Part shown: positions 3,474-32,000 of the stretch, in pieces
Position numbering within the stretch: the first letter of the stretch is position 1
How the letters are laid out: the number at the start of each line of letters is the position of its first letter
Source of the DNA: Edaphobacter aggregans
Lineage (GTDB): Bacteria; Acidobacteriota; Terriglobia; Terriglobales; Acidobacteriaceae
Reading direction: 5' to 3'
Assembly: GCF_003945235.1 (NCBI RefSeq)
Contig: NZ_RSDW01000001.1
Span: 1,530,001-1,562,000, forward strand
DNA length: 32,000 nt
Made by a program: the position numbers and the translations under genes
Notes under the pieces: model-generated
Database searches by the model: none
Told to the model about the DNA's origin: nothing
The model's input: only the letters and a program-made list of their open reading frames with translations

Positions 3474-3480
3474 GCCTCGC

Positions 3481-10385: not shown

Positions 10386-10434
10386 AACCCACCTGACCTG
10401 AAGCCAAATTCGTTCTATCCTTGTCCAACATCTA

Positions 10435-12738: not shown

Positions 12739-12753
12739 CCCAGGCAATTCAAT

Positions 12754-13023: not shown

Positions 13024-13068
13024 ACGTAGCACTCTATCAGAGCACTTTCTCCAACAGCCGAGTTCATA

Positions 13069-14490: not shown

Positions 14491-14499
14491 CACAAAACC

Positions 14500-16154: not shown

Positions 16155-16206
16155 CCCCTAAGCCTAATCCTCCACCCCACCCCCATGTCGAGCAACGCGC
16201 AACAAA

Positions 16207-16234
16207 CCACACTTGCCACACTTGCCACACTTTT
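16207..16234. repeat. Tandem 9-mer CCACACTTG x2 plus an imperfect third copy
   Basis: ccacacttg (16207-16215), ccacacttg (16216-16224), ccacactttt (16225-16234). It is in the 116-bp gap between the cysH stop and the xdhC start. Confidence 0.6.
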
Positions 16235-16270
16235 CTCCGCTAACCAACCACCAAAAACCACACGCCAACA

Positions 16271-16966
16271 TCAACTTTTCTCAGAAAAAGTATGAATCCC
16301 ACACTCTAATTTTTTCCCACCCCAGCGCCCACTCCGAGGATCAGCCCCAGCCTCCGGAATCGCTGTGCAAGGCTCACACCCGATACTCGTATACCCCCGA
16401 TCGTAAAGCTCCAACCGAGGAATCCCCTCTGTTTCCGCATACTTAGTCACGCGAGCCCAATCCCAGTCCGCCAGCACGCTCACCTTCTTCATCTGCTTCC
16501 CCGTCGGAGTCCGGTGATCCTCCACCTTCTTCAACCCCGCCCGAGTAGGCGACTGCTCCCGCCGCAACCCCGTAAACCACCAGTCAAACGGCTCCAGCGA
16601 CCGCATCAGCGGCTCCACCTTCCTCACCCTGCAGCACTCCGTAGGCTGCACAATATGCAGCTTTCCAAACTGCCCCTCAAACTCCGCCACCGTAGTCGAA
16701 GGCATTGCATTCACAAGGTTTAGCCCCCACTCCTTCACCATCCGATCCCGATAAGCAATCAGCTCTTTGAAGTGATATCCCGTCTCCAAAAAAATCACCG
16801 GAACATCCCGCAAAAACCTCCTAAGTATATGCAAAACAACCATATCCTCCGTCTGAAAGCTGCTCGTCAAACACACACCCACACCACCCGAGTCGCTCAA
16901 AACCCGCGCCACCAGAGCCTCCGCGGTCATCGCCTCATAATCAACACCAGTCTCAAGCACACTCAC
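16271..16966 (-). CDS. cysH: Adenylylsulfate (APS)/PAPS reductase, thioredoxin-dependent, Fe-S-type
   Basis: PAPS_reduct fold with the C-terminal ECGIH catalytic motif. It has the CC...CxxC pattern (PTECCRVRK, SIGCEPCT) associated with [4Fe-4S] APS-reducing CysH enzymes. It overlaps the cysN stop by 4 nt. Confidence 0.9.
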   Translation of the reverse strand: MSVLETGVDYEAMTAEALVARVLSDSGGVGVCLTSSFQTEDMVVLHILRRFLRDVPVIFLETGYHFKELIAYRDRMVKEWGLNLVNAMPSTTVAEFEGQFGKLHIVQPTECCRVRKVEPLMRSLEPFDWWFTGLRREQSPTRAGLKKVEDHRTPTGKQMKKVSVLADWDWARVTKYAETEGIPRLELYDRGYTSIGCEPCTAIPEAGADPRSGRWGGKKLECGIHTFSEKS

Positions 16967-18591
16967 TCCGTCACCCCCGCCAACCGTAAAATTTCCTCAT
17001 CACCCAGCCCGTCCCCCACCACAAGTCCTTTATTAGCAAAGCCTTCCACCTGTACCAGCACCGATTCACTCAGCACCCGCGCCGACACCGCCACCACACC
17101 AGCCAACTGAAGCGCCCGGACCACACCCACCACTGCATCATCCGGAATCAGCGCATCATCAATCATCACAGCACGCTGACCCCGCGCACCCAGAGCATCC
17201 CTAACTCGTTCTGCCAGAGCGACTTTGCCCGGCACCAGCACAAGCACAGCTCGTTCCGCATCCTCACCTGAAGCCTCCACCGCCCCAAGAATCATCGCTG
17301 CTCCAACCGTGGCATTCGTCAAGCCATCGATCAGAATCAGCGCCCCCATACTCCGGTTCTCCGCATACGCGTCAAAAAAAAGCGGCAAATTAGTCTCAAA
17401 CTCCACCTCAGCGATTTCATTCATCGCCAGTCGCTCCGCAGCCACCTCATCGAGCGAGCCCACATCCACGCGATAGCGAATCGCCCTCACAGTAGCCCGT
17501 ACCGTCCGCGTCGTATGCTTCGCAATGTACGTCCGCCCCGCAATCAGCGGCTCTTCGTGCATCCATACCACCATCGCGCGAAACCGCCGACTAACCTCAG
17601 GCAGCGTATCACCAGCTTCAGGAGCAGCAACCAACATCTCCCCGCGGCTTAGGTCGATTTCGTCCTCCAACTCCACCGTCACGCTCTGGGGATACGCCGC
17701 TACCGGAAGATCACCGTCATAGGTAACGATCCGGCGCACAAATGTCTCCCGCCGTGATGGAAGCGCCATTACCCTCTGCCCAGCGCGCACCATCCCACGC
17801 GCAACCTGTCCCGCAAACCCGCGAAACTCCGCATCCGGCCGCAACACCAACTGCACCGGAAACCGCACCGGCCCATTCACTTCGCCCACCCGCAACGGCA
17901 CTGTCTCCAGATACTCAAGCAGCGTCGGCCCCTCGTACCAAGGCATCGCGTCGCTTGGCGTAACGACGTTATCCCCCTCCAACGCACTTACCGGAATCGC
18001 CGAAACGCTAGCCAGCCCAAGTCGTCCCGCCAGATCAAAAAACTCCCCACGAATCGCGGCGAAGGTCTCCTCCGAATACTCCACCAGGTCCATCTTGTTC
18101 ACCGCAGCCACGACATGCGGAATCCCCAGCAGAGAAGCAATATACGTATGCCTCTTCGACTGCGGCAGCAGCCCACCCTGCTTCAGAAACGCCTTAGCAT
18201 CAATCAGAACAATCGCCACATCCGCCGTCGAAGCACCAGTTGCCATATTCCGCGTGTACTGCTCATGCCCCGGAGTATCCGCAATGATGAACTTCCGCCG
18301 CGCCGTAGAAAAATAGCGGTAAGCCACATCGATCGTAATGCCCTGCTCTCGCTCCGCCTTTAAGCCGTCTGTTAACAATGAAAAGTCAACATGTCCATTT
18401 GCAGCTCGATTCACGCGGCTCTTCTTCACCGCCGTAAGCTGGTCTTCGTACACACTCTTCGTGTCATGCAGCAACCGCCCAATCAGCGTGCTCTTTCCAT
18501 CATCGACGCTGCCGGCTGTCGTAAACCGTAGCATCTCCTGCTCCAGATGAGCTTCAAGAAACTCCTCAAACCTGATCATTTCCTCAACCAT
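16963..18591 (-). CDS. cysN: Sulfate adenylyltransferase subunit 1 (GTPase) with about 105-aa C-terminal extension resembling a degenerate APS-kinase domain
   Basis: G-motifs GSVDDGKST, DTPGHEQY and NKMD are present. The EF-Tu-like domains II/III end around ...TNATVGAAMILG. The extra tail is AVLVLVPGKVALAERVRDALGARGQRAVMIDDALI... Confidence 0.9.
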   Translation of the reverse strand: MVEEMIRFEEFLEAHLEQEMLRFTTAGSVDDGKSTLIGRLLHDTKSVYEDQLTAVKKSRVNRAANGHVDFSLLTDGLKAEREQGITIDVAYRYFSTARRKFIIADTPGHEQYTRNMATGASTADVAIVLIDAKAFLKQGGLLPQSKRHTYIASLLGIPHVVAAVNKMDLVEYSEETFAAIRGEFFDLAGRLGLASVSAIPVSALEGDNVVTPSDAMPWYEGPTLLEYLETVPLRVGEVNGPVRFPVQLVLRPDAEFRGFAGQVARGMVRAGQRVMALPSRRETFVRRIVTYDGDLPVAAYPQSVTVELEDEIDLSRGEMLVAAPEAGDTLPEVSRRFRAMVVWMHEEPLIAGRTYIAKHTTRTVRATVRAIRYRVDVGSLDEVAAERLAMNEIAEVEFETNLPLFFDAYAENRSMGALILIDGLTNATVGAAMILGAVEASGEDAERAVLVLVPGKVALAERVRDALGARGQRAVMIDDALIPDDAVVGVVRALQLAGVVAVSARVLSESVLVQVEGFANKGLVVGDGLGDEEILRLAGVTE

Positions 18592-19544
18592 TAGAAGTAA
18601 CCCTCCCGCTTCTTCACTTCCATCGAGCCTTCTTCATCATGGTCGATCGCCCGGTTCTCCCGCTCACTTCGCCGAAACGTCATCAGCTCCTCGATGATCT
18701 TCGGTAGCGTGTCCGCCTCACTTCGCATCGCCCCCGTGCAAGGCAGGCAGCCCAGCGACCTCATCCGCACCTTCACCGTCTCCACCGTCTCACCCGGCAA
18801 CAACTTCATGCCATCGTGAACCAACGTCATAGCTCCACCCCGGACCACCAGCGGACGCTCCTTCGCAAAGTACAGCGGCACAATCGGAATCTTCTCCGCA
18901 TACAGATATAGCCAAATATCCAGTTCCGTCCAGTTCGACAGCGGAAACACCCGAATGCTCTCGCCCTTCCGCAGCCGCGAGTTGTACAAACTCCAAAGCT
19001 CGGGCCGCTGATTCTTCGGATCCCACTGCCCCGCCGCATCGCGGAAGCTGTACACCCGCTCTTTAGCCCGGCTCTTCTCCTCATCCCTTCGCGCCCCACC
19101 AAACGCCGCATCGAAGCCGCCCTCCGCCAGCGCATCCAGCAAACTCCGTGTCTTCAGCAACCCGCAGCAGTTCTGCGTCCCTAGCGTATAAGGATTCGCC
19201 CCTGCCGCAATCGCCTCCTCATTGCGATGCACAATCAGCTCTGCACCAATCTCCCGGGTGTATTCATCGCGAAATGCAATCATCTCCGGAAACTTGTAGC
19301 TCGTATCCACATGCAGCAGCGGAAACGGAATCTTCCCGGGATAGAACGCCTTCTGCGCCAGCCGCAGCATCACCGACGAGTCCTTGCCGATCGAGTACAG
19401 CATCACCGGTCGCGCGAACTCCGCTACCGCCTCTCGGAGAATTGCAATGCTCTCTGCCTCCAGCGCCTGCAGATGTGTCAGCCGAACCGGCTGGCTCGTT
19501 CCTGTCTGCTCCAATGCATTTGTCGTTTGATCCAAAGCAATCAT
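18591..19544 (-). CDS. cysD: Sulfate adenylyltransferase subunit 2
   Basis: The 317-aa PAPS_reduct-type ATP pyrophosphatase fold ([13 protein letters not shown]) and the C-terminal ...[10 protein letters not shown] are typical of CysD. Its stop overlaps the cysN start by 1 nt (TAATG). Confidence 0.92.
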
Positions 19545-19885
19545 TGAGGGTCTTTGTCTCCAGATGGGGCTATGACTCGGCCAAAGCTACGGAAGAGAAG
19601 GCCGCTAAGGTTTTAAGGCTGGTTATGTAGGAAGGGAGATGGTCCGTTAGCGGGGACAGCGCCGGAGCATATTCATCCGGCAACAACACGCACGCGTAAT
19701 CAGGAACACCATACCTTCCACTATAAAGTGCCCCAGATGCCACCGCAACTACCCAGTCGCACACCGAGCACGAACCCCCTCACATCTGCTAAACTAATTC
19801 AGTCGGTACAGCGATCCAGCAAGCCCACCCGGGCGCTTGAGCCTCGCGGAACGCTCTCCTCATCGGCATCTCACCGCAGCACATT

Positions 19886-19962
<77 letters not shown>

Positions 19963-20129
19963 TTCTTCCAAAACAGCTCTTTTGAATATCATGTCGAAGG
20001 GCTTTCTGTATGCAGGCGCTACATTTACGGCGTCTACAGAGCAGTCCGATAGCGCCGCTACCGGGGATAGGCCCTGGGCACTCAGAGGATTTTCGAATTG
20101 GTGAATACGGCATATTCACTGTATGTTTC

Positions 20130-20560
20130 GCAAGATTCGACCGAAAAGGCCAACTTGCTGAAAATGCTATCTTCCGTCAGGTTCACCTCGACCGCTGCAC
20201 AATCGATCTGACGAACACCAAAGAATGGTCGGCCCGAACCGTTCACCTGAACGCCGACTCTATTGCCGCGCTGGAATCCATCCGATTAAAGGGCAGAAGC
20301 CCAGCGATTCAGTCTTCCAGCCTGAAGGCTCACGTTTCGATACTCGTTCCTGGTTTTTGCCGTGCCTTGTTGACACCGGCATCGAAGGCTATGTGTGGCA
20401 CTCGAATCGACATACCTTTTGCTCATAGCTCCATGGCCGGAAGCCACCATCAAAGTAATCCAGGAGCTTGCCGGGCACAAACAATCACCATGTCTGCCCG
20501 CTACAACCACCTGTCACCCGAACACCGTTTGTCGGTAATTTATCGCATCGCGCGGCAGCC
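20130..20560 (+). pseudogene. Tyrosine recombinase (phage-type integrase) remnant: catalytic domain only, multiply frameshifted
   Basis: Integrase catalytic-domain segments are spread over three frames. Frame A: VHLDRCTIDLTNTKEWSARTVHLNADSIAALESI. Frame B: DSVFQPEGSRFDTRSWFLPCLVDTGIEGYVWHSNRHTFCS, then a stop. Frame C: ATIKVIQELAGHK. Back in frame A: TITMSARYNHLSPEH (HxxR and catalytic Tyr boxes). No N-terminal core-binding domain lies between it and the tRNA. Confidence 0.75.
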
Positions 20561-20662
20561 TCCGAGGAAACGAATGGTACGAAAAATTGAAACCAACAGC
20601 CACCAAATAAAAACGGCCACTTCGAATGAGCGGCCCTTTGTCCTGTAACTATTTTATTATCT

Positions 20663-20717
20663 TGGTGCCGGGAGGGGGGGTCGAACCCCCACGAGGTTGC
20701 CCTCGGCGGATTTTGAG
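20663..20717 (-). pseudogene. Orphan 3' half of a class II tRNA-Leu(CAA) gene (anticodon loop to CCA), att-like remnant
   Basis: The minus strand reads CTCAAAA-TCCGC-(CGAGG-GCAA-CCTCG)-TG-GGGGG-TTCGACC-CCCCC-TCCCGGC-A-CCA. That is a perfect variable arm, T arm and 3' acceptor. The sequence 5' of the anticodon loop (…TCTCGGGAAA) cannot form the anticodon stem (GCGGA needed), and no GCCGGGA acceptor 5' strand is present. Confidence 0.8.
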
Positions 20718-21007
20718 TTTCCCGAGAATACCGTATGTTTATGATAAATAAGCGTAATCGAGCGTAATTAGCGAACCAGCTAAACTCATTCCCACCTGTA
20801 ATTTAGCGTAGCTTGCCGCAATTAGGGCGAACTGACGTCTGTACCCGAACGTGTACCTGAAAAAACCCTGCACCTTGGCGAGCGCTGAAGTCGAAGTGTG
20901 CCTCTGGCGAATAGAGTCCAAGAAGGAGCGATGACCGAACTCAACTCCGAATTGCCTACCCGCTCAAATCCGTTTGGCACTCCAGGGTGAACCCTGATGC
21001 GGCTTCA

Positions 21008-22954
21008 TTATCTTTTCGTAAGGAAAGCAAGGAACTCAGATTCGCTTTTTGTGAGTCCTGGGAACGTGTCCGACACGGATCCGTCAACACTCAGAATCGC
21101 ATAGAAAGGCAGCGCAACTGTACCGAACGTCTTCTGCTGGAGGCTCTGTTGACGCTGAAAGATTTCACCATCGCCGTCGGTATAGAGACGCACGCAAATA
21201 TACCGTTTCAACTCCCGGCTGACCTCCGGCTTCGAGAACATGTTCGCCTCCATCCAACGACAGTTCGTGCATGTGTATCCGGTAAAGTCGATAAACACAG
21301 GCATGTTCTCTCGCTTCGCCCTGGCCAATGCACCCTCATAGTCATTGATCACCCAATGTACTTCAGCGTCCGAATTTGACCGTGGCCCTTCGATCGCACC
21401 CGAAGAAATTGCGCCCATCTCCGGCGGGAGGAATGCTTCCAACCCTCCGAGCTGCCTTCCGAACAAACCAGGGACCAACCATATGGTCGCAGCGAGAACG
21501 ACCATGGCGACGATCAGCCGCCCGGCACCTACACTCCCCCTTGCTTCTTCGTGCGCCATTCGCAAGTAGCCCAAAATATACAGGACCGTCAGAATGCCTA
21601 TTCCCACCCAGGTTGCCAGGACTACTTGCCGCGTGAAGATGCCCCAGCGCCACACGAGGTCGGCGTTCGAAAGAAATTTCATTGCTGCAGCAACTTCAAG
21701 GAAGCCCACAACAACCTTGACCGAGATCATCCAACCGCCGGACTTTGGCAACTGCGACAGAACTTGCGGGGCCAGAGCAAGAAAGAAGAACGGAACAGCG
21801 AAAACAGTCGAGAAAGCCAGCATGCCGGCCAGTGGCCACCGCCAATTCCCTTGTGTGGCCATTACTAACAACGTCCCCACAAATGGCGCGGTACATGTGA
21901 AGGATGTCAGCGTGAAGGTAGAACCCATCAATAAAGCGCCAACAACCCTGGTTCCCTCTTTGCTGCGGGTCAGCGAATCAAGCCTGTTTGTTAAAGCCGG
22001 CGGCACTTGAATGAAGTACGCCCCCAATAGCGAGAATGCAAATCCTAGAAAAATCGCAGTGATGAGAAGATTCACCCAGGGATTAGCAGCCAACTTGTTC
22101 ACCCCGCCAGCACCGAAGATGATCGCAAGCAGCAAACCTAGCGCGGTGAAGGTCAGGATGATTCCTAATCCGTATAGCAGCGCTGTGTTTACTGCACTTC
22201 GACGACCCGTGCCGGAGTGATTGACGAAGTACGACACTGTCATCGGAATCATCGGGAAGACGCAGGGCGTCAGAAGCGAAAGTCCACCCATCATTACAGC
22301 AAGCCAGAGGAATGAACCCATGGATTGCCTGGGAACGCTAAGACCCGCAACGGATATTTCCTTGGAATTCTTCTCAACGGCGGCGGAGGACGAAGAAGTA
22401 TCGGGCAGAGGGGCAGAGAAAACTACTTGCCCCTTCTGCTCAAGGGACTTACCTACCGGTGTTGCAGCAGCTTTTATCGCTTTGATGCTTACCGGAACCC
22501 TCAGATGTTCCGTAGTTGCTGGCATGCATGTTGTGTCGTTACATACCTGGAACCTGACATCGATGGCGAGCTTTTGATCGCCGGCAGGCGTGTTTGGAGA
22601 CACGGACACCGGAACAGCGAACTCGGGATGGTCTTCGTAAGTCTCCGTGTTCATCTCGAAATTTGCGTCATAAGCAGTGAGCGGTGGCGGCCCGCTGATC
22701 TGACCATCGAGTCTGAAGGGCTGCATCTTCGGAATACTTATAACAGTGGTTGTGGGCCCTCCGGACGGCTGGGTAATGGAATACATATGCCAGCCACTGC
22801 TGATCTTCGCAGACAGCTTCACCGAGAATTTCTCTCCTGGCTGGATCGCTTTGCCAGGGGCTGGTGCCGCACTCCACTGTGCGGGACGCTCCTGGCAAGG
22901 CGCTCCAATTGCCATCGTTATCAGCAGCAAAACCGTCCAACAACAATTCTTCAT
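21008..22954 (-). CDS. dsbD: Thiol:disulfide interchange protein DsbD (alpha, transmembrane beta, thioredoxin-like gamma domains)
   Basis: Signal peptide. N-terminal DsbD-alpha-like domain (SSGWHMYS, RFQVCNDTTCMPA). Central 8-TM DsbD/CcdA core with conserved cysteines (LLTPCVFPMIP, FTCTAPFVG). C-terminal thioredoxin fold (VFIDFTGYTCTNCRWME). 648 aa. Confidence 0.9.
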   Translation of the reverse strand: MKNCCWTVLLLITMAIGAPCQERPAQWSAAPAPGKAIQPGEKFSVKLSAKISSGWHMYSITQPSGGPTTTVISIPKMQPFRLDGQISGPPPLTAYDANFEMNTETYEDHPEFAVPVSVSPNTPAGDQKLAIDVRFQVCNDTTCMPATTEHLRVPVSIKAIKAAATPVGKSLEQKGQVVFSAPLPDTSSSSAAVEKNSKEISVAGLSVPRQSMGSFLWLAVMMGGLSLLTPCVFPMIPMTVSYFVNHSGTGRRSAVNTALLYGLGIILTFTALGLLLAIIFGAGGVNKLAANPWVNLLITAIFLGFAFSLLGAYFIQVPPALTNRLDSLTRSKEGTRVVGALLMGSTFTLTSFTCTAPFVGTLLVMATQGNWRWPLAGMLAFSTVFAVPFFFLALAPQVLSQLPKSGGWMISVKVVVGFLEVAAAMKFLSNADLVWRWGIFTRQVVLATWVGIGILTVLYILGYLRMAHEEARGSVGAGRLIVAMVVLAATIWLVPGLFGRQLGGLEAFLPPEMGAISSGAIEGPRSNSDAEVHWVINDYEGALARAKRENMPVFIDFTGYTCTNCRWMEANMFSKPEVSRELKRYICVRLYTDGDGEIFQRQQSLQQKTFGTVALPFYAILSVDGSVSDTFPGLTKSESEFLAFLTKR

Positions 22955-22983
22955 CGATCAAACAGCCTTTCGTCCGGAATTTC

Positions 22984-25746
22984 CTAGCTCTTGATCTTTG
23001 AGAAATCGCCTGCTTCGACCACGATCATCTTGCTGGGATCGATATACCGCCGCATCGCGCTCTTGATCTGTTCGGAGCTCAATGACTGGATGGCTCCCTC
23101 AAACTTATCGTCCCAATGCAGATCGCGATCGATATACAGGTGCGACAGCAGCGAGCCTGCGATGCTGCCATCGTCTGCGAATCGCATCTGGCGGCTTTGC
23201 AACATTCCTGCCTTCGCTGCTGCAAGTTCTTCTGCCGTGAAGCCATCCTGAAGCACATGGCCTAGCTCGTCCTGATACACCTTCTCCACCTTTGAAGCAT
23301 TTTGCGGCGCACAGATCGCCGAGAAGATGAACGAGCCGTTCTTGTCCATCGCATCCGCCTCGAGTTGCGACCCGACACTGTAGCTGAGTCCCTCGTTTTG
23401 GCGGATCTTAGTTGCAAGGCGTGAGTTGAGGAAGCCGCCTCCCAGCATATAGTTCCCCAGAACGAGAGCCGGATAGTCAGGATCGAATTCGCTGATCTCC
23501 AGCGTTCCAGCAGCCATGACAACCGCATTTGCTTTGTCCGGGGTCTCAAAAGACTCGTTCGTTCCTTGGATACCCTTATAGACAGAAGTGATCCGCTGAT
23601 AAGGCACCGGACTCTTCCAGTCACCAAACGTTTCATTAAGCACCGATGTGAGTTCCGCCTGATCAAAGGGGCCGACGAACGCACCTTCTCCGGAACCGAT
23701 TCCGTAGAAGTCATGATGGAATTTCTTCACATCAGCCAAAGTGGTAGAACTCAGTCTCGATAAGATCTCATCTGTCGTGGGCTCATAGCGAGAGTCTTCC
23801 GGCTTGTACGGAGACGTGTACCGTCGAATTGCTTTGGACGCGACTGCCTGGGGCTGATGGCGCGAATCCGTTACCGACATGGCCAGCATCTGCTTGATTT
23901 GATTAAACTGATCCTCCGGATAAGCAGGATTTCGCGCAATTTCAGCCGCAAGGCGCAATGCGGCGGCCAGATTTTCCTTCGGCACCTTGACCCGGATAGT
24001 GATGTGTTTGTCGTCACCACTCACACTCAGATCGGCTTTCAACCGGGTCATCTCGTCCTGAAGCTGAGTCATGTTGTACTTCTGGGTTCCGGTCATGAGC
24101 AGCGCGCCTGCGACGCTTCCAGCCGTCGTGCGCCCTCTGAGCGCAACTTCATTTCCGAAGTGGAACTGCAGAACGCCCGTTACAAGATCACCTCGTGTCT
24201 TTTTCTCAAGCAGAGCAAGTTTGATTCCGCCTACCGAGCTGCGCTTCGTGCGTGCTTCAATCGCAGCAGGAGTGGGATCGATCTGTTCACCAGCAGCGAT
24301 CGCAGCTCCACCCTTATAGTCCTTCAGCATTGCCGTTGTGTCCGGAGCATTCGGAATTTCTGCGCGCACAGGCTTCTCTTCCGGAATGAAAATGCCGACC
24401 GTTCTGTTGGATGGCACAAGATATTTCGCTGCGACTCGTTGGAGATCGGCGACAGTGATCTTCTTGATCTGATCTCGTTCCCAGAACAGCAGTCTCCAAT
24501 CTCCTTGCGAAATCGACTCGCTCAAGTAGAGCCCCACTCGATCCGCAGAGGTCAGAGCTCGGTCGATGCCGTTCAGCGCCTCCGCTCGCACACGATTGAG
24601 TTCAGCTTCAGTAATTGGCTCCGCGGCAATGCTCTCCGCAACATTGAGGAGCGCCGCCTTTGCCGCTTGCAGATTTCCGGCCTTTGGTAGCTCAGCGCTG
24701 AAGGAAACCAGGCCCGGATCATGCAATCCCATAAGGCTCGAGCCTGCACCTGTGGCAAGCTTCGTTTCAACCAGTCGCTTATAGAGACGGCCCGAAGGTT
24801 TCTGATTCAGGACATCCGTAAGAAGATCGAGTGCGGTTGCGTCGGGGTGCGAGGCAGATGGCGCGTGATACGCCGCCATAATGACTTGCGTCTGTCCAAC
24901 CCGATGGAGCGTAACTTCGCGCTCGCCATCCTGAACCGGTTCCGCGGTATAGAAATTCGGGAGCGAACGCGATGGCCTCGCAATCAGACCAAACTTCTCC
25001 TGGATGAGAGCGAGCGTCTTCGCCTCGTCGAATTTGCCGGCGACGACGAGCACCGCGTTATCCGGTTGGTAGTAAGTATGGTAAAACGCCTGCAGGCGGT
25101 CGATCGGCACATTCTCCACGTCTGCTCGTGCACCGATCGTTGGATGGCTGTAGTTATGCCATATGTATGCTGTCTCCAGCACTCGTTCCTGCAGAATTCG
25201 TGTCGGGCTGTTCTCCCCGTTCTCCATTTCATTACGGACGACAGTCATTTCCGTGTCGAGGTCTTTCTTGGCGATGAACGAATTCACCATCCTGTCGGCT
25301 TCCAGGCTCAATGCCCAATTCAGGTTCTCGTTACTCGCGGAAAAGATCTCGTAGTAATTCGTTCGGTCGGTAGTCGTCGACCCGTTCACCTTTGCGCCGT
25401 GCAAGCTTAGCTCGTCCGGGATATGTTGATGTGTCGGTGTGCCCTTGAACATCAGGTGCTCCAGTAGGTGTGCCATGCCTGTTTCCCCATAGCTCTCCTG
25501 TCTGGAACCGACAAGATACGTGATGTTTACATTGATGACAGGCTTTGACTGCTCCGGATAAAGAAGCACTCGGAGCCCGTTGGAGAGACGGTATTCCGTG
25601 ATTCCTTCGACCGAAGTAATACGCTGTGGTGCCTGCTCTGGTTTCAACGGCCCGGAAGTCGCTCCCTGCTGGACTTGACCAAGCAAGCTGGTTGTTAAGA
25701 CCGCGGCAGCTACGACGCTCGACAAACGACAAAAATGGAACCTCAT
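22984..25746 (-). CDS. Exported double M16 (pitrilysin-family) zinc peptidase: active N-terminal unit fused to an HxxEH-less second unit
   Basis: I set the start at ATG 25746 (MRFHFCRLSSVVAAAVLTTSLLGQ signal peptide), preceded by AGGAG. The inverted zincin motif HLLEHLMFKGT is in the first half. The second half (from about ...GNEVALRGRTTAGSVAGALLMTGTQKY) is M16-like but lacks HxxEH. 920 aa. Confidence 0.88.
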   Translation of the reverse strand: MRFHFCRLSSVVAAAVLTTSLLGQVQQGATSGPLKPEQAPQRITSVEGITEYRLSNGLRVLLYPEQSKPVINVNITYLVGSRQESYGETGMAHLLEHLMFKGTPTHQHIPDELSLHGAKVNGSTTTDRTNYYEIFSASNENLNWALSLEADRMVNSFIAKKDLDTEMTVVRNEMENGENSPTRILQERVLETAYIWHNYSHPTIGARADVENVPIDRLQAFYHTYYQPDNAVLVVAGKFDEAKTLALIQEKFGLIARPSRSLPNFYTAEPVQDGEREVTLHRVGQTQVIMAAYHAPSASHPDATALDLLTDVLNQKPSGRLYKRLVETKLATGAGSSLMGLHDPGLVSFSAELPKAGNLQAAKAALLNVAESIAAEPITEAELNRVRAEALNGIDRALTSADRVGLYLSESISQGDWRLLFWERDQIKKITVADLQRVAAKYLVPSNRTVGIFIPEEKPVRAEIPNAPDTTAMLKDYKGGAAIAAGEQIDPTPAAIEARTKRSSVGGIKLALLEKKTRGDLVTGVLQFHFGNEVALRGRTTAGSVAGALLMTGTQKYNMTQLQDEMTRLKADLSVSGDDKHITIRVKVPKENLAAALRLAAEIARNPAYPEDQFNQIKQMLAMSVTDSRHQPQAVASKAIRRYTSPYKPEDSRYEPTTDEILSRLSSTTLADVKKFHHDFYGIGSGEGAFVGPFDQAELTSVLNETFGDWKSPVPYQRITSVYKGIQGTNESFETPDKANAVVMAAGTLEISEFDPDYPALVLGNYMLGGGFLNSRLATKIRQNEGLSYSVGSQLEADAMDKNGSFIFSAICAPQNASKVEKVYQDELGHVLQDGFTAEELAAAKAGMLQSRQMRFADDGSIAGSLLSHLYIDRDLHWDDKFEGAIQSLSSEQIKSAMRRYIDPSKMIVVEAGDFSKIKS

Positions 25747-25832
25747 TCGACTTCTCCTAATGGTTTCGGCCACACGATTCGGCGCAATAAAGTTGGCGGT
25801 ATATCTGACTTCCACAATCAACCGAAAGAAAG

Positions 25833-26669
25833 CTAAAGCTTGTTATGTTCAATCTGTGTCAGGGAGACGTCCCAGTCGTACTCTTCCGCAAAGTTTTGCG
25901 GCTCCACTCGATAACGAATGTCCCAGTGCCGTGGCAGGGTCAATCCGTCCACCGGCTGAAAGTCTCCAAATCGCTCCTCTACAATCACAGTAGTTTGGTT
26001 AGGGTCGTAAATTGTCTGGCTTCCATGCAGCATGGTGAGCGTATAGACCGTTAGGACGTGATGATAAGTCTCCGGCTCGAAGTACAAACGAATCGACAGT
26101 TCTCCACTCTCAGAGCGCTTTTTAGGAACATAGGAGATCTCATGGAGTTGCTGACCGTTGATCTTTTTCAGCCTCTCATACTTCAGAGCCGGATTGGTGT
26201 TCTGGGTGTTCAGCAGTGGCCACGCCGTCGAAAGGATGCCGCCAAACAGCCCCTCTCGCAGGACTTCTTCTTGTAAAAAAAGAAAATTTCCTAGCCGTGA
26301 ACGACTTGTCTGGTCAACCATGGCCACCAAGTCCTGATTGCCATCGAAGACAAACTTTTCCCCGGGATATTGAGAGTTGCCAAACTGGAATTCACACTTG
26401 TGTTTTCGTTGCTGGGACAGCAAGGTCGCAGCCCCTTCCATATGAAGTGAGTGCCGGATGATCTCCGCAAATACGACCTTCCCCTGCGAAACTCTTGATA
26501 CCGCGGCGGCACGAGCGTCTGCACTACCAATCGAATCAAGGTGCCTGGAGATAATCGCATCACTCGTTAGCTTTGGCTCTTTTGCTGTGCACGGGATCAC
26601 TGCGACAAGAACCGACCCCACAATGATGGATGCCTGTCGTGCGACGTTCTTCGGTTTAATTATTTTCAT
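25833..26669 (-). CDS. Exported hypothetical protein (possibly LolA-like / lipoprotein-sorting-like beta fold)
   Basis: 278 aa with N-terminal signal/anchor IIVGSVLVAVIPCTA. Its start overlaps the upstream gene's stop by 14 nt (ATCAATGAAAATAATTAAACC). The fold guess is weak and based only on size and sequence texture. Confidence 0.65.
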   Translation of the reverse strand: MKIIKPKNVARQASIIVGSVLVAVIPCTAKEPKLTSDAIISRHLDSIGSADARAAAVSRVSQGKVVFAEIIRHSLHMEGAATLLSQQRKHKCEFQFGNSQYPGEKFVFDGNQDLVAMVDQTSRSRLGNFLFLQEEVLREGLFGGILSTAWPLLNTQNTNPALKYERLKKINGQQLHEISYVPKKRSESGELSIRLYFEPETYHHVLTVYTLTMLHGSQTIYDPNQTTVIVEERFGDFQPVDGLTLPRHWDIRYRVEPQNFAEEYDWDVSLTQIEHNKL

Positions 26670-28356
26670 TGATGGTCACCGGTACTTCGAACGAGGCTTT
26701 GGCAGCAGGCATACACTGCTGCACATCGCAGACTTGGAATTGGACATTGCCGTTGATCTTGGCCTTCGCAATGGCTGCGGTCGAATAGAACTGCCGGGTG
26801 AAGACAACATCTCCCCGATACTCCATCAACCCAGGAACATCACCGTTGTTCGCCAGGGGCGTCTGCCAGTCTTCGTTCCAGCGGAAGCCATCCGGCAATT
26901 GAGCATCGATCTTGATCGGCTTATACGAGACGTCCTGAGGGACTTGCGCGTAGACGTGCCATCCGTCGGCGACCTTCACGCGAACGACAAGCGTTACCAA
27001 TGCGCCCTTTTTAGAAAAAGTCCCTTCCTTGGAATGGAAGTAAGTCGCGGCAGTCGCGCCCACACTCACTGGGGCAACATCGGTCGGCTCAGTCACGCTC
27101 ATTGCATCGATTGCAGTTCTTACACTCACCGGTGTCGGTGCAGGACCTGCCGGCCCCGTAAAGAATCGGTAGTCATAAGAATCCGAGAAATAGAGTTTGC
27201 TTCGGTTCTGTTTCAGCCAGTCCTGCCATGCTGTCGCGTCCGTGAGAGACAAGCCGGTATAACGTTGCAGCAACCGTAATGCTTTGGGAGCTTCGCTGGG
27301 ATTGCTTAGTAGCCCGACGCATTTTTCCAGCAAGCGAGAATCATTATTGGCAATGCCGAGGCTTTTTGCATCCTCGTCAATCTCGAACCAGATCTCGCCA
27401 TGGGGCTGCCGCACGTATCCGAGATTAGGAGCGTAATATGCACGATACTTTTCAATACTGTCGCTATATTTGTCGATCAGGGATGGAAGAAAGTCATCGT
27501 AAGCCCTTTCAGCGCCGAGCATTCGCCTCAAGTCTTTCGTCGCGAGCATCATTTCTAACTCGCGGCGCCCGTGCAGGCCACGCCACACTGTCTGCTTCGC
27601 GCCATCGAACTGCTTCATGTACACAATCGTGTTCACAAATGCACGGCGAGCCTCTTCGGTCATAAGGCGCGGATTCGCTATCGGCCCCCACAGGAAAAGA
27701 TTCGCTTCACGAACCAGCGCCACACCGTGATCGCCCTTCATGTTGATTCCGCCGGCGATGATCTCAGAATCATCGGCATCAAGGAATTGCTCTACTGCAG
27801 CAACCAACCCAGGATCTTGCATTTTCTCTTGAACCTTCCACATGCCAACCGTCCTTCCCGTCACCGGGTCGGCTTCCTGGGTGAGGGTTGGCGTTACCGC
27901 AAGCGGTCCATGGAAGATCGGGTGATCGAGCCGAATCGTGTGCAATTTATCCCTCAGACATTCGCACAACAAGTCGATCTTTGTTCCAGTGCGGTCAATC
28001 CCATATAGGCCATTGCTTCCGACCAGCACCATCGGTTTGCGGAAATTCGGCGGCAACACAATCGGGATCCGAGCGTCTTTAACAATGACGTCGATATCTG
28101 TTGACATCTCGGGTTTGAAATCGGCACCTTTGGTTGTGGCGACCGAGATAAAGTGATTCTCGAGAAACTGCTTAAAATCGGCAGCGCGTTGGGGGCCCGG
28201 ACCACCCAGGACATCGGCATCACCACCGATATAAAGGATTCGTAGCGGTTGCTTGACCTCTACGGTCGCCGACTGCGCGGCCGAAAGCATTGCAACAAAG
28301 AGCGTGATGGCTAACAGGACGACCTTCTTCAAATCCAACCTCAATTTTGTATTCAT
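26656..28356 (-). CDS. Exported multidomain protein: unknown alpha/beta-like N-terminal and middle regions plus a C-terminal DsbD-alpha-like (DsbC/DsbD N-terminal family) domain
   Basis: I set the start at ATG 28356 (MNTKLRLDLKKVVLLAITLFVAMLSAAQS signal peptide); the ORF-track GTG at 28374 is the alternative. The C-terminal 140 aa carry ADGWHVYAQ and QFQVCDVQQCMPA, matching the DsbD N-terminal domain in this same operon. The N-terminal region (LRILYIGGDADV...) vaguely recalls ThuA/GATase-1-like folds, with low confidence. Confidence 0.8.
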   Translation of the reverse strand: MNTKLRLDLKKVVLLAITLFVAMLSAAQSATVEVKQPLRILYIGGDADVLGGPGPQRAADFKQFLENHFISVATTKGADFKPEMSTDIDVIVKDARIPIVLPPNFRKPMVLVGSNGLYGIDRTGTKIDLLCECLRDKLHTIRLDHPIFHGPLAVTPTLTQEADPVTGRTVGMWKVQEKMQDPGLVAAVEQFLDADDSEIIAGGINMKGDHGVALVREANLFLWGPIANPRLMTEEARRAFVNTIVYMKQFDGAKQTVWRGLHGRRELEMMLATKDLRRMLGAERAYDDFLPSLIDKYSDSIEKYRAYYAPNLGYVRQPHGEIWFEIDEDAKSLGIANNDSRLLEKCVGLLSNPSEAPKALRLLQRYTGLSLTDATAWQDWLKQNRSKLYFSDSYDYRFFTGPAGPAPTPVSVRTAIDAMSVTEPTDVAPVSVGATAATYFHSKEGTFSKKGALVTLVVRVKVADGWHVYAQVPQDVSYKPIKIDAQLPDGFRWNEDWQTPLANNGDVPGLMEYRGDVVFTRQFYSTAAIAKAKINGNVQFQVCDVQQCMPAAKASFEVPVTINENN

Positions 28357-28398
28357 GTTGTGATCTAACTCCACGTCGTCAATTTCTTACTCGGTCTA

Positions 28399-29733
28399 TC
28401 ACTGTGCCTTCGGCAACAGACTTCTCACTTCTGCGCGGAAGACCTCAGGCGTGTCGAGAGTGAACCCGACTTCGTTGAATCGAATCGTTCCTGATCCGTC
28501 GACGATTACCGTGTGCGGAATCGCGCCAATACCGTATGCGCGTTGAATCGTGTCATCCTTCAGCAAAACCCGAGCAGCAAAGCCGTACTTCTCTGCAAAC
28601 GGCCTCACTTTTGTGGTGTCTTCATCCAGGTTGATCATCAGCACTGTGAGACCCTGGTTCTTGAACTCATCTTGGATCTTCTGAAGGTGTGGGTACTCAG
28701 CGCGGCACGGTTTGCACGTTGTATCCCAGAAATTCAGAAGCACCACCTTGCCTCGCAGTTCAGACAATTTTGTTTTGCTACCAGAAACAGACGTCAGGCT
28801 GAAGTCAGGCGCGGGCTTATTGCTCTTCGCCTTGTTCATCGCATCCGCGATCAGCGCTTTGTCAAATGCGTCAAGTTTCTCATTCAGAAATTTTCCGAAA
28901 GGAGTCTGGCCGTCACGGGAACCATATACGGGGCGGGCTTCCTCTCTGATTCGCGTGACCAACGTTTGCTGTTCGGTCAATTCCTGCGTGAATCCAGCAG
29001 AAGCAGTCGGACCTACTACGTCAATGTGCTTCTGAGTTGCACTTACTCTGTGCGCTGCAAGACTGTACGCCTCGCCGAAGCTCTCGAGAGCATCGCCTTC
29101 CTTGCCTAAAGCTGCGTAACAACGAGCGATATTTCTGGCCGTGCTCGCAGAAGGATCCAGATGTCTGCTTCTTCGCAGTTCCTCGGATTCCTGCAGCGCT
29201 GCAAGCGCCTTCTGTGCAAATCCCATCTCCACAAGCGCTTCGCCCTGAATTGCCAACGCCGTAACGAGGCTCTGCTGAATCTTGCTCGTCGGTGCAGCTT
29301 TTGCATCAGACTTCAGGAGTGCAACCGTTGAATTCAACTGCTGCATGGCGGAGTCATACTGCTTTTTATTTAGGAAGGCAGTGGCTAGTCGCAGACGAGA
29401 GTCGGACTCCGTTACTGCTGGAACACTGGCCTTGGCCATTTCATCGACCGCCTTTGCCGCATCACTTAGGTCATCTACTCCGAGATACGCATCGATGAGA
29501 TTGGGATACAAAACGGAGTATTTGGATACCGGATCGCTGAATAAAGGCTCAGCCTCGCGGAACAAGCGCAGTTTTTGTGCCGGATCCTGCTGGCTCATTG
29601 CTTCGCGAAGCTTGTTGCCTGCAACACCAACCACAGGCGCCTGGCCATGCGAGACCCTTGGCGACATCGCCATAAATAGCAGAGCGAGAGCCGGTATTGG
29701 AAGACTGCAACGGTATTTCAAACTGAATTCCAT
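28399..29733 (-). CDS. Exported TPR-like helical repeat protein fused to a TlpA/ResA-type thioredoxin-fold thiol-disulfide oxidoreductase
   Basis: Signal peptide (LPIPALALLFMAMSPRVSHG). About 280 aa of helical, TPR-like repeats. The C-terminal region APDFSLTSVSGSKTKLSELRGKVVLLNFWDTTCKPCRAEYPHL carries a CxxC as CKPC. Confidence 0.88.
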   Translation of the reverse strand: MEFSLKYRCSLPIPALALLFMAMSPRVSHGQAPVVGVAGNKLREAMSQQDPAQKLRLFREAEPLFSDPVSKYSVLYPNLIDAYLGVDDLSDAAKAVDEMAKASVPAVTESDSRLRLATAFLNKKQYDSAMQQLNSTVALLKSDAKAAPTSKIQQSLVTALAIQGEALVEMGFAQKALAALQESEELRRSRHLDPSASTARNIARCYAALGKEGDALESFGEAYSLAAHRVSATQKHIDVVGPTASAGFTQELTEQQTLVTRIREEARPVYGSRDGQTPFGKFLNEKLDAFDKALIADAMNKAKSNKPAPDFSLTSVSGSKTKLSELRGKVVLLNFWDTTCKPCRAEYPHLQKIQDEFKNQGLTVLMINLDEDTTKVRPFAEKYGFAARVLLKDDTIQRAYGIGAIPHTVIVDGSGTIRFNEVGFTLDTPEVFRAEVRSLLPKAQ

Positions 29734-29742
29734 ACCTAATCC

Positions 29743-31809
29743 CTACTGCACCTTCGGCGCATTGCCTGTCAGTTCGTCTGCCAGTTCATTGGCGTTATAA
29801 ATCTTGCGTAGTCCTTCAAGGATGGCGCGTGAATCCACGCTCATCGCGCGCGCGCCTTCTTCGTCGTAAACATATCGTCCCGCCAGCAATGCTTTGTTAG
29901 CATCGAAAGCCACTCCTACAAGTTCGCCTTCAGTGTTTACAACCGGGCTTCCGGAATTGCCGCCAATGACATCCAGCGTTGATATTTCATTGAGCGGGAC
30001 ATTCGGGTCAATCTTGCCCCTCGCCTTCACCCAGCTCTCGGGCAATTGATACGGCGGTTTGTTTTCTTTTTCCTTCGCATATCCAAACGCGCCGCCCATC
30101 GTTGTAAATGGGAGATCAGCGCCGACCCCCTTCACGATTCCAAAGGTCAAACGAAGACTGCTGGTGGCGTCGGGAGATACCGCAAAGCCGTCAGCGGCGA
30201 ATGTCGCTTCTCCAATCGCGACTCGAATCCCCGTTAGGTCACCCGCGCCACGCCTGCCAGTCATGCGTTTTTTCTCCGAACGCGCCTCCTGATCAACAGA
30301 ACGCTGCACAATGATCAGGGGATCGGTACTCGCATCAATGGCGGCCTGACCGCCGGCCAGAAGTTCTTTGCGTACCTCCGGGTCATCAAGCTTAGTGTTT
30401 GCAATTAACTCGTGAGCTCGTTCTGCGGGTGTCTTCCCGCTCAGAACTTTCCGGACCAAAGGATCCTCTGATCCCAACTCATCCACGAGTTGCCCCAACG
30501 AATCCACCAACGCAATTTCATCAAGAGCCTTGTTGATCGAACTCTTGTTGGTGAGGTCGCGTTCTTGCATACGCCACGACGCATCACGAAATTCCGGGAG
30601 GCGCGCATCGTTTGGCTTGGATCGCTCTGCCGCTGCACGAACCAGGATTCGCGCATAAGACGCAAGGCGGCCACTCAAACCAACGGTCTCTGGATAATGT
30701 CGCTCCGAGTCGAACTTTCGCTGCTGCGCGATTGCTATGTCGAGCTCTCCCCAGGGATCTCCATACTCAGCTCTCAGTCTCGCATTGGCTGCAACCGTTT
30801 TCCGGAGCTTTTGTTCCTCCGCAGTCTTCTTGGCCATTAGATCCTTGTCGAGCAAGCCTGCCTGATATCCCCTGATCGCCTTCAGCCGGTTCTCCAAATC
30901 CCAAACCAGCGGCGCAACCATCGAAGCCTTCTCTGGTGACTTCTCGCTGAACTCTCTCAAAAGCTGGGCGCGTCGAGTGTACGACTTGATTTGCGCTGGG
31001 TAAACAACATCTCGAAGGTATTCCAATTGCGACAGCGTGCTCAGACGGGCTGTGGTCGATGGATTCCCTGCCGCAAACACGAGCGAGCCTTCTTTCGCCC
31101 CTGATGTCGAAACCTTCAGATAATTAGAGGTGTGAGCGGGCAACCCGTTTTCATAGGCACGAAAGAAAGCTATGTCGAGGTCGTATCTTGGAAATGTGTA
31201 ATTGTCCGCGTCTCCGCCGAAGAACGCACTTGTAACTTCGGGTGCAAATACCAGGCGAACATCGGAATATTTTTTGTAGCGATAGAGACGGTATACAGCC
31301 CCAGCATAGAGAGGAACTGTCTCACAGCTCAATCCCGTTTTCTTACACTCGTCTTCAATTCGCTGAAGCACAGCACGTCGCGCGTTTGCCGCTTCTGTAG
31401 ACTTTGCCGCTGGATTGGCCGCTGCAGACACGCTTGCAGTAATGTCTTCTATGTTCTGAAGCACTTCCACTTGCAGCCCCGCACATTTGACTTCCTCAGC
31501 GGAAGACTTAGCGTAAAACCCCGACTCCATGAAGTCTTTTTCTTTTGTCGAGGCGGCTATAATGCACTTTCTGCCTACGTGATGATTGGTGAGGATCAGG
31601 CCATTTGGCGAAACAAACGAGCCTGAGTCGCCCATTCGAACAGAGGAGAGGCGCAGGTGATCCAACCACGCCTGCGTAGGTTCGAAGCCGTACTTTGCCT
31701 TGATTCTCGCCATCGGCACATTGTCGAATGGCCACATCCCCTCGTCCGCCACTGCCCGTATCCCAAGGCAGAGCACAAGGAGGCCCGTCCATTGAAACCC
31801 TTTACGCAT
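29743..31809 (-). CDS. S46-family serine peptidase (dipeptidyl-peptidase 7/11-like), exported
   Basis: ADEGMWPF at the mature N-terminus, [17 protein letters not shown] (catalytic His region) and [11 protein letters not shown] (catalytic Ser). I set the start at ATG 31809 ([21 protein letters not shown] signal peptide). An upstream ATG at 31893 forms a TAATG overlap with the preceding gene but would bury the signal peptide. Confidence 0.88.
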
Positions 31810-31892
31810 CGAATTATTCCAATCTGACTGTTGTTCGTTATGAGACGGGCGACGACGATTCACCGCCGCCGCCCGTGTTGCCTGCGAAGACA

Positions 31893-32000
31893 TTAGAAGA
31901 CGAGCTTCAAGGCCATCTGAACGGAACGAGGACCGCCATTTGAGAAAATCGGAAGTATGCCCAGTAATCCGCCCTGTCCGCCGCTTCCCGCCATCGATGT
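31893..32000 (-). CDS. 3' end (35 codons) of an outer-membrane beta-barrel / TonB-dependent-receptor-like gene, truncated by the window edge
   Basis: My hand translation of the minus strand gives TSMAGSGGQGGLLGILPIFSNGGPRSVQMALKLVF, then a stop. The terminal aromatic (Phe) with an alternating hydrophobic pattern is the classic OMP C-terminal signature. The identity is tentative because only 35 aa are visible. Confidence 0.5.
   Translation of the reverse strand, partial: TSMAGSGGQGGLLGILPIFSNGGPRSVQMALKLVF

Follow-up and report, generated by a model that had tools for sequence, protein, structure and literature searches.

A receptor, peptidase and DsbD locus of Edaphobacter aggregans as a candidate system for the uptake and reductive digestion of disulfide-containing proteins or peptides

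In the protease-associated import systems FusA/FusC of Pectobacterium and YddB/PqqL of Escherichia coli, a whole protein is imported and then cut by a periplasmic M16 peptidase (Grinter et al., 2019, PMC6793856). That study covers Proteobacteria and makes no mention of thioredoxin, DsbD, disulfides, Acidobacteria or Bacteroidetes. Here we analyzed a 32,000-nucleotide (nt) stretch of the Edaphobacter aggregans genome (assembly GCF_003945235.1, contig NZ_RSDW01000001.1, positions 1,530,001 to 1,562,000; hereafter “the window”, numbered from its first letter). In this window the 3′ end of an outer-membrane receptor gene is followed by genes for an S46 peptidase, a TPR-thioredoxin, two proteins that we call D and C, an M16 peptidase and a DsbD-type membrane electron transporter. 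Protease-associated import is the closest described concept. The combination recurs in unrelated phyla, and the locus is therefore probably an undescribed system for the uptake and dismantling of disulfide-locked proteins or peptides.

As in the Fus and YddB/PqqL systems, a gene for a TonB-dependent transporter is clustered, on the same strand, with a gene for a periplasmic clamshell M16 enzyme of about 900 residues. The differences lie in the remaining components. The window receptor is of the CarboxypepD_reg/OMP_b-brl_4 type (SusC/SusD in Bacteroidota) and not of the FusA/YddB type, and the loci contain neither a FusB-like TonB nor a FusD-like ABC transporter. They add instead a DsbD, one or two TlpA-like thioredoxins and D, and they are placed under the control of an extracytoplasmic function (ECF) sigma factor and an anti-sigma factor.

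The arrangement was found well beyond the window. Acidobacteriaceae contigs with a D at 92%, 84% and 70% identity all carry a colinear nine-gene unit in the order ECF sigma, anti-sigma, receptor, S46, TPR-thioredoxin, D, C, M16 and DsbD; in these relatives the unit extends upstream past the window position to the two regulatory genes, and the genes that come next after it are unrelated ones or transposases. All 12 of 12 further metagenome fragments with a C at 63% identity or higher are pieces of this same order. In a more distant locus (L003, with a D 41% identical) the gene set is kept without S46 and its order is shuffled, to sigma, anti-sigma, receptor, a 295-residue DsbD_N protein, D, TPR-thioredoxin, DsbD, C and M16. 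A variant contig lacks both D and the thioredoxin and reads receptor, C, DsbD and M16, then sigma, anti-sigma and a second receptor.

For a census across genomes, the D alignment was run against a collection holding a single genome for each species; the census covered the 80 loci that this returned and six further metagenome loci. E. aggregans is absent from that collection, and exact look-ups with S46 and C matched no indexed contig, so that the upstream genes of the unit were read in relatives. Partners were identified by phmmer, using the window proteins against six-frame open reading frames (ORFs), and were counted if they were on the same strand as D and within 10 kb. In the 55 Bacteroidota loci, D was accompanied by a SusC receptor in 50 cases, by a TlpA-like thioredoxin in 42, by M16 in 18 and by DsbD in 10, and nine loci had all four. 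Each of the four Acidobacteriota-like loci had all four partners (4, 4, 4 and 4). The 22 Planctomycetota loci yielded a single TlpA-like thioredoxin and no receptor, M16 or DsbD, so that none had all four.

Several layouts occur in Bacteroidota. In Flavobacterium the order is ECF sigma, FecR anti-sigma, SusC, SusD, thioredoxin, a split D, thioredoxin, DsbD and M16; in Mucilaginibacter it is SusC, SusD, DUF4843, a PKD-like protein, a BSP peptidase, thioredoxin, D, thioredoxin and M16. Pedobacter has a front half like that of Mucilaginibacter followed by a Trypsin_2+PDZ (HtrA-like) protease. In Sphingobacteriaceae the order is DsbD, sigma, anti-sigma, SusC, SusD, thioredoxin, D and M16. DUF4843 and PKD-like proteins are known from SusC/SusD uptake loci. 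One Flavobacterium locus (L078, 15946-17469) also contains, between DsbD and M16, a gene for a cytoplasmic SufS-family cysteine-desulfurase-like protein (508 residues; TIGR01979, E 4.8e-45). The same DsbD-M16 gap of about 1.8 kb is present in L071, L076, L080 and L082, the gene content having been read in L078 only.

Chance adjacency was ruled out as an explanation for these data, as the gene set persists through rearrangement and across phyla. The original prediction had proposed that the neighbors are not randomly adjacent, and the recurrence of receptor, TlpA-like thioredoxin, D, DsbD and M16 in Acidobacteriaceae, Flavobacterium, Mucilaginibacter and Sphingobacteriaceae agrees with it. It is thus well supported by comparison of the sequences that the genes are functionally coupled. 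Of the genes put forward for a co-inheritance check (S46, TPR-thioredoxin, the DsbD-alpha fusion (D), M16 and DsbD), S46 is outside the conserved core, being limited to the Acidobacteriaceae. The description of the reducing pathway as “complete” was correct for DsbD, whose three domains are intact, but it understated the unit, which has ECF sigma and anti-sigma genes upstream.

In the explanation that we favor, the genes seen here are the downstream portion of a nine-gene unit for nutrient uptake under ECF sigma/anti-sigma control, by which a disulfide-containing protein or peptide is taken up and then digested reductively; we give this a rough probability of 0.45. We infer from gene content in which direction transport runs, which path the electrons take, what kind of substrate is used and how the steps are ordered. 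A TonB-dependent outer-membrane transporter would bring the disulfide-containing protein or peptide into the periplasm. Electrons taken from thioredoxin in the cytoplasm would cross the inner membrane through DsbD, whose gamma and alpha domains would hand them on to two dedicated periplasmic partners: the TlpA-like thioredoxin with its TPR region, and D, by way of its DsbD-alpha-like domain. The substrate might be held by the TPR domain, by the N-terminal part of D or by both while its disulfides are opened. The clamshell M16 would then cut the unfolded chain, and in Acidobacteriaceae S46 would trim it on to dipeptides. A LolA-like C could serve as a periplasmic carrier.

The electron-transfer components have the parts that such a scheme would call for. 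The window DsbD matches DsbD_N (1.3e-13), DsbD_TM (6.1e-31) and Thioredoxin_7 (1.7e-11) in Pfam, and all six cysteines are present: the Cx4C pair at 138-143, the transmembrane Cys231 and Cys354, and CTNC at 562-565. It is 57% identical to the DsbD of L003 and 32% identical over its full length to that of Flavobacterium L078 (E 3e-99). Its score against NCBIfam NF001419 was 151.6 bits, below the cut-off of 330; by these sequence scores it has the DsbD architecture and falls outside the curated E. coli-type subfamily.

The TPR-thioredoxin matches AhpC-TSA (4.2e-25), Redoxin (7.5e-22) and TPR_12 (2.8e-6), as well as Thioredoxin_8, with the CKPC active site at 340-343 and an extra TPR region of about 250 residues. 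None of the NCBIfam cut-offs was reached (ResA 104.5 bits against 170, TlpA 74.1 against 230, DsbE 62.3 against 123), and no ccm, res, sco or cox genes were found in the window locus or in the relatives’ loci examined. By these scores and neighbors the protein is not a standard maturation factor for cytochrome c or copper.

D is the least familiar of the components. Its sole Pfam match is DsbD_N at residues 454-563, the last 110 or so, where a Cx4C pair stands at 543-548. When D is aligned with the locus DsbD, its C-terminus falls on the alpha domain and the two Cys pairs are in register. A full-length AlphaFold2 model built from a 24-sequence alignment had a mean predicted local distance difference test score (pLDDT) of 88.6 and a predicted template modeling score (pTM) of 0.84, and the best PDB matches of this model in Foldseek were the DsbD-alpha structures 6dnv, 1l6p and 1jzd (E. 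coli, Neisseria), which cover the C-terminal domain only. Sequence, structure prediction and alignment thus agree on a predicted DsbD-alpha fold for this domain. It is established for DsbD that electrons move between its alpha domain and proteins of the thioredoxin fold; the most plausible docking partner for the alpha-like domain of D is therefore DsbD-gamma or the TPR-thioredoxin.

Residues 1-450 of D had no Pfam or NCBIfam match, and the same region had no Pfam match in any of 28 family members; a profile search of the N-terminal part against PDB returned marginal DsbD-alpha matches only. Modeled separately, residues 32-434 reached a pLDDT of 86.4, and Foldseek gave weak matches to Pdx2 (E 4.5e-4), the ThuA-like 4jqs (9.5e-4), TrpG (1.6e-3) and PuuD, in a range to 6e-3, with template modeling scores on the target of 0.41-0.55 (0.55 for TrpG). 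These models hint weakly at a class-I glutamine-amidotransferase/ThuA-like fold followed by a helical region. Many polar residues are invariant in the family alignment, including Cys131 and His145. D has few homologues: a word-indexed protein search found 55, and a search of 1.84 billion proteins with the N-terminal part of D gave matches in 563 representative clusters. D represents an unnamed protein family with a confident predicted structure.

Variation within the family bears on the role of the Cys pair. The D of L003 (10001-11875) has lost it, and the adjacent 295-residue DsbD_N paralogue (9052-9876), which is 55% identical to the C-terminal half of D, keeps it as CNKEQC. That the neighbor supplies the lost pair suggests that the unit requires an alpha-like domain with redox activity. 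The D of Flavobacterium is encoded by two genes, and some loci have a small separate DsbD_N gene after it.

Could these components serve the cell’s own envelope instead? The rival that survives best, although we regard it as unlikely, is redox maintenance or quality control in the style of Scs or DsbD-DsbG, in which DsbD, the thioredoxin and D would repair the cell’s own cysteines, the peptidases would clear damaged proteins, and the receptor and sigma/anti-sigma genes would be a stress sensor or unrelated neighbors. A DsbD with TlpA-like acceptors is the classic layout for periplasmic reduction and repair (DsbD-CcmG/DsbC/DsbG, ScsB), and ECF sigma factors often respond to envelope stress. D also occurs without any receptor in Planctomycetota, and its invariant Cys131 might need protection. 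On the other hand, no partner of D is stronger or more widespread than a nutrient-type SusC, which accompanies it, usually together with SusD, in 50 of the 55 Bacteroidota loci; DUF4843 and PKD-like proteins, known from uptake loci, are present as well. The loci examined contained no protein like DsbA, DsbC or DsbG, no peroxidase and no Msr domain, and a processive dipeptidyl-peptidase and a clamshell M16 fit nutrition better than repair. If quality control were the function, the locus would be a variant of known envelope redox systems and of modest interest.

The receptor gene is cut by the window edge, which leaves 33 residues (the cut gene ends in ...GGPRSVQMALKLVF; translation ...GGQGGLLGILPIFSNGGPRSVQMALKLVF*). 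This C-terminus is identical to that of the 1094-residue receptor of a relative (L002) and to that of the receptor of L008, so that the outer-membrane-receptor-like gene predicted at this position was confirmed. The L002 protein matches OMP_b-brl_4 (E 2.8e-144), CarboxypepD_reg (4.9e-20) and Plug (2e-5) in Pfam; the receptor had no PDB sequence match at E≤0.01. SusD is absent from the acidobacterial version, with its CarboxypepD_reg-type receptor, whereas SusC and SusD are adjacent in the Bacteroidota relatives. Across loci the regulators are an ECF sigma factor with a zf-HC2 or FecR anti-sigma factor; the anti-sigma protein of Acidobacteriaceae is about 600 residues long, and one orthologue has a weak zf-HC2 match. 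Pairing of this kind is typical of transporter-linked uptake loci.

The family of both peptidases is clear from their Pfam matches. S46 matches PF10459 (E 1.2e-188) over residues 49-709 and profile positions 1-697 of 698, with the serine motif GNSGSP and the histidine motif TNHHV; against the NCBIfam Dpp7 equivalog it scored 176 bits, short of the cut-off of 1200. From its restriction to Acidobacteriaceae versions of the locus, in the census and in relatives, S46 can be classed as a lineage-specific add-on outside the conserved core. M16 matches Peptidase_M16 (3.5e-27) and M16_C (5.6e-65), two stretches each, and carries the zinc motif HLLEH at 93 with NEMENGE about 75 residues downstream. The M16 of the Flavobacterium D-loci is 31% identical to it over the full length (E 1e-131). 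The same slot is filled by different peptidases in different lineages: S46 in Acidobacteriaceae, a BSP peptidase in Mucilaginibacter, Trypsin_2+PDZ in Pedobacter and M16 in many. The presence of different peptidase families in one slot fits a protein or peptide substrate.

Among PDB sequences, the N-terminal 340 or so residues of M16, and these only, matched PqqL (6ofs, E 1e-23) and the chains 6b03, 6brs and 6b05 (about 900 residues, E about 1e-18), deposited as “Putative zinc protease”, which we take to be FusC. Ordinary M16B enzymes matched better, at 1e-43 to 1e-49. The PqqL and presumed FusC matches raise the possibility of metal piracy on the Fus model, in which an imported protein with Cys-ligated metal (a ferredoxin, a metallothionein-like or a zinc protein) would be cut by M16 while the thiol pathway handles the metal-binding cysteines. 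We consider this second rival improbable. Sigma/FecR-type control is typical of iron uptake, and FecR domains occur in the loci; no Fur-box-like site above shuffled controls was found upstream of the sigma genes in six loci, which is weak evidence because the E. coli consensus only was used. The receptor plus periplasmic M16 is indeed the FusA/FusC and YddB/PqqL architecture (PMC6793856), but neither the receptor type, with its empty PDB search, nor the lack of a TonB homologue and an ABC transporter follows that model, and the best matches of M16 are ordinary enzymes. Release of an Fe-S cluster, moreover, needs no thiol-disulfide exchange.

Another possibility is that the locus harvests sulfur or cysteine, with a cystine-rich peptide or a non-protein organic disulfide as the sulfur source and with reduction and proteolysis leading to cysteine. 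We hold this to be a long shot, ranking behind metal piracy, and it overlaps the uptake explanation without excluding it. The SufS-like gene between DsbD and M16 could hint at cysteine as the end product; it is confirmed in one Flavobacterium locus only. The sulfate-activation genes cysD and cysN lie 1.5 kb beyond DsbD in the window, but this adjacency is not conserved: they are on the chromosomal side of a tRNA-Pro boundary, and relatives have other genes there. Finally, secretion is highly improbable: a CarboxypepD_reg-type receptor would export a peptidase, as has been reported for Oar and the protease PopC in Myxococcus, and the reducing pathway would keep the cargo unfolded or disulfide-free, which suits the acidobacterial CarboxypepD_reg plus OMP_b-brl_4 architecture (presumably of the Oar type) but not the Bacteroidota equivalent, a SusC with a SusD partner and hence an import pair, nor the ordinary Sec signal peptides of M16 and S46, which are periplasmic in characterized relatives.

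C had no match in Pfam or NCBIfam, and its PDB profile search was empty. Its sequence is that of E. aggregans EDE15_1284 (100% identity), listed in UniRef as an outer-membrane lipoprotein-sorting protein, and 4 of 24 homologues have weak DUF4292 matches. Distant homologues adjoin MacB_PCD/FtsX genes, which we read as LolCE-like, or CarboxypepD_reg-type receptors (L087 10001-13546; L088, L128, L144, L156). The UniRef name, the weak DUF4292 matches and the MacB_PCD/FtsX neighbors together suggest that C is possibly a LolA/LolB-like carrier, and C may be a general periplasmic partner of CarboxypepD_reg-type receptors. A C-DsbD-M16 trio occurs in one contig (P0110) without D or a thioredoxin. The C family is broad in Acidobacteria, with 363 matches in the protein search and at least 518 confirmed metagenome stretches.

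Several points weigh against uptake and reductive digestion as the function of the locus. D stands alone in the 22 Planctomycetota loci, essentially without a receptor, thioredoxin or peptidase nearby, and so does not strictly need that context. Most Bacteroidota D-loci have neither M16 nor DsbD, and S46 is lineage-specific. The census loci are phylogenetically clustered, with many from Pedobacter and Mucilaginibacter, so that the counts overstate the number of independent events; and since these phyla are very rich in TlpA-like proteins, SusC and CarboxypepD_reg receptors, the chance background is higher. The fold match of the N-terminal part of D is weak, and the invariant residues there could be those of an enzyme that the pathway merely keeps reduced. 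Import, as opposed to export or signaling, is assumed from the receptor family.

The layout of the locus in the window is given in Table 1. The minus-strand gene order and the gaps between S46, thioredoxin, D, C, M16 and DsbD (9, 42, -14, 86 and 29 nt with the starts chosen here) that had been reported were reproduced by the ORF listing, and the family assignments and the motifs HLLEH, CKPC and CTNC were borne out by Pfam and by reading of the sequence. The six genes for exported proteins span 21008-31809, all downstream of the 3′ end of the receptor-like gene. An N-terminal signal sequence was found on every locus product, and the catalytic and redox motifs of S46, the thioredoxin, D, M16 and DsbD are intact.

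Table 1. Features of the locus and its boundary in the window.
Feature	Position	Strand	Basis
TonB-dependent-receptor-like outer-membrane gene, 3′ end, cut by window edge	31893..32000	-	C-terminus match to relatives’ receptor
S46 dipeptidyl-peptidase, exported, 688 aa from M29	29743..31809	-	Pfam Peptidase_S46
Exported TPR + TlpA/ResA-like thioredoxin-fold reductase, 444 aa, CKPC	28399..29733	-	Pfam AhpC-TSA/Redoxin/TPR_12
D, exported, 566 aa, unnamed family, C-terminal DsbD-alpha-like domain	26656..28356	-	Pfam DsbD_N, models
C, exported, 278 aa, possibly LolA/LolB-like	25833..26669	-	No Pfam or NCBIfam match
Exported four-domain M16 zinc peptidase, 920 aa, HLLEH	22984..25746	-	Pfam Peptidase_M16/M16_C
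DsbD-type membrane electron transporter, alpha+beta+gamma, 648 aa	21008..22954	-	Pfam DsbD_N/DsbD_TM/Thioredoxin_7
Terminator-like hairpin then T run, 123 nt past DsbD stop	20870..20885	-	Consensus scan
tRNA-Pro(CGG)	19886-19962	+	ARAGORN + Rfam
Frameshifted tyrosine-integrase remnant	~20190-20560	+	Three frames stitched, Pfam Phage_integrase

Three starts were chosen within longer ORFs. The S46 ORF reaches 31893 (716 residues), and its M29 gives a signal peptide followed by a mature DEGMWPF, an N-terminus typical of S46; the S46 orthologue of the relative L008 starts at the position equivalent to M29, which is most likely the real start. The first ATG of the S46 ORF shares nucleotides with the stop codon of the receptor gene (TAATG); with M29 as the S46 start, the two genes are 83 nt apart. 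The M16 ORF (22984..25821) would be 945 residues from a TTG and begins here with MRFHF, while the D ORF (26656..28374) would be 572 residues from a GTG and begins here with MNTKL; C overlaps D by 14 nt. Long plus-strand ORFs within the locus (e.g., 23857..24690 and 26458..27279) are antisense to genes with strong family matches and are therefore taken as shadows.

The short gaps, the sole pointer, suggest a single operon. Consensus scans found 4 promoter-like sites against 7.3 expected and 13 terminator-like sites against 12.7 expected, with none of either kind in the gaps between locus genes. The hairpin past DsbD is a possible end of the transcription unit, although with the site total at chance level this is weak evidence.

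The locus lies in a variable, island-like segment, as indicated by a break in homology at tRNA-Pro. Window 1-20000, tRNA included, has a colinear counterpart in each of two close relatives, at nucleotide identities of 95-97.5% and about 90%; their homology ends at window 20016 and 19968, 6-54 nt past the tRNA 3′ end, and is followed by different genes in each. This setting agrees with the transposases that neighbor the unit in other genomes and with its patchy distribution across phyla. The ORF at 20010..20648 (212 residues), which starts 48 nt past tRNA-Pro, had no Pfam or phage match in its own frame; the stitched integrase remnant matched Phage_integrase at E 5.2e-7 (30 bits against a cut-off of 27.1). 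A tRNA-like fragment suspected by eye at about 20655-20730 had no Rfam or ARAGORN support and was discarded.

Just beyond the tRNA-Pro boundary, cysN (542 residues) and cysD (317 residues) for sulfate activation occupy window 16963-19544; CysN is 100% identical to an E. aggregans protein. A functional link between cysDN and the locus was ruled out, as these genes are on the conserved chromosomal side of tRNA-Pro and are not beside the locus in relatives. Further along, window 3557-16154 encodes a multicopper oxidase, an MFS transporter, a zinc alcohol dehydrogenase, an amidohydrolase, a xanthine-dehydrogenase-family molybdoenzyme (MoCoBD) and XdhC, which are ordinary metabolic genes with strong Pfam matches despite an extreme bias at third codon positions.

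This bias is part of a strong compositional skew. Window 1-19544 has a GC skew of -0.3 to -0.47 and an AT skew of up to +0.3, independent of gene orientation, with C at 0.35-0.45 and G at 0.16-0.23 on the plus strand. At third codon positions its minus-strand genes have G3 of 0.42-0.63 and C3 of 0.07-0.19, and the plus-strand MoCoBD gene has C3 of 0.70 and G3 of 0.11. The onset is sharp at cysD and is kept in both relatives (L169 9000-21629, L170 9000-21629); the skew is near zero in the relatives’ other flanks and in other Acidobacteriaceae contigs, and there is almost none in the locus. The pattern looks like one strand being enriched in G+T at synonymous sites.

Returning to uptake and reductive digestion, it could be speculated that the locus is one instance of a horizontally mobile, cross-phylum module for reductive protein import, in which cytoplasmic reducing power, spent through a dedicated DsbD and an unnamed adaptor family with an amidotransferase-like and a DsbD-alpha domain, would unlock disulfide-stabilized proteins imported by a TonB-dependent transporter so that periplasmic peptidases can digest them, a new DsbD branch with foreign nutrients as its clients. 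We regard this wider generalization as doubtful. Disulfide-rich proteins and peptides such as defensins, hydrophobins, cysteine-rich cell-wall and storage proteins and mucin domains resist proteases. If loci of this kind do import and reduce them, this would explain how abundant soil and gut Acidobacteriota and Bacteroidota gain nutrient access to disulfide-rich proteins, it would take the idea of protease-associated import beyond Proteobacteria, and the clients of the DsbD pathway would come to include a further class. The locus is present in the cultured genera Edaphobacter, Flavobacterium, Pedobacter and Mucilaginibacter.

Other known systems share some of these parts. With the described DsbD branches (CcmG/DsbC/DsbG; ScsB-ScsC/ScsD and the TlpA-like peroxiredoxin) the window locus has in common a DsbD of three domains in which the six cysteines are all present, a CxxC acceptor of the TlpA/ResA type and an extra DsbD-alpha-fold domain with its Cys pair in register. 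It differs in that its acceptors carry an appended TPR domain and the N-terminal part of D (about 450 residues), that no cytochrome-c, copper or DsbC/G-type client genes are present, that the set is embedded in a transporter/peptidase locus, and that its proteins score below the curated DsbD, ResA, TlpA and DsbE cut-offs. Unlike ScsABCD, the locus genes encode no DsbA-, DsbC- or DsbG-like domain, and only the TlpA-like element resembles ScsD. A fusion of a thioredoxin fold with TPR, able to hold unfolded clients while acting on cysteines, recalls the chaperedoxin CnoX/YbbN, which is a cytoplasmic thioredoxin plus TPR and in E. coli lacks a canonical CxxC; the window protein, in contrast, is exported and TlpA-like, with CKPC and the opposite domain order.

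A further likeness is to SusC/SusD loci. In Bacteroidota, sigma, FecR-type anti-sigma, SusC and SusD come first and D and the thioredoxins after them, along with DUF4843 and PKD-like proteins. Porphyromonas uses peptides through RagAB and DPP7/DPP11, where S46 enzymes are periplasmic producers of dipeptides downstream of a SusC-type transporter that imports oligopeptides. The D loci differ from described SusC/SusD loci in that no carbohydrate-active enzymes were seen in them, that the window version is without SusD, and that the redox module is in no described locus found in the literature searches.

Full-text searches, whose coverage is incomplete, found no reductase module on protease-associated import, SusC or TonB-receptor loci. 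They agree in this respect with the original prediction, which knew of no described system of such composition, but the receptor with a periplasmic M16 was already described (PMC6793856). The earlier interpretation as a whole is therefore partly supported: the coupling of the genes is well supported, and the mechanism drawn from gene content is plausible. What we rate as new here is a conserved reductive module, together with an unnamed adaptor family, on a known type of transporter-plus-protease uptake locus.

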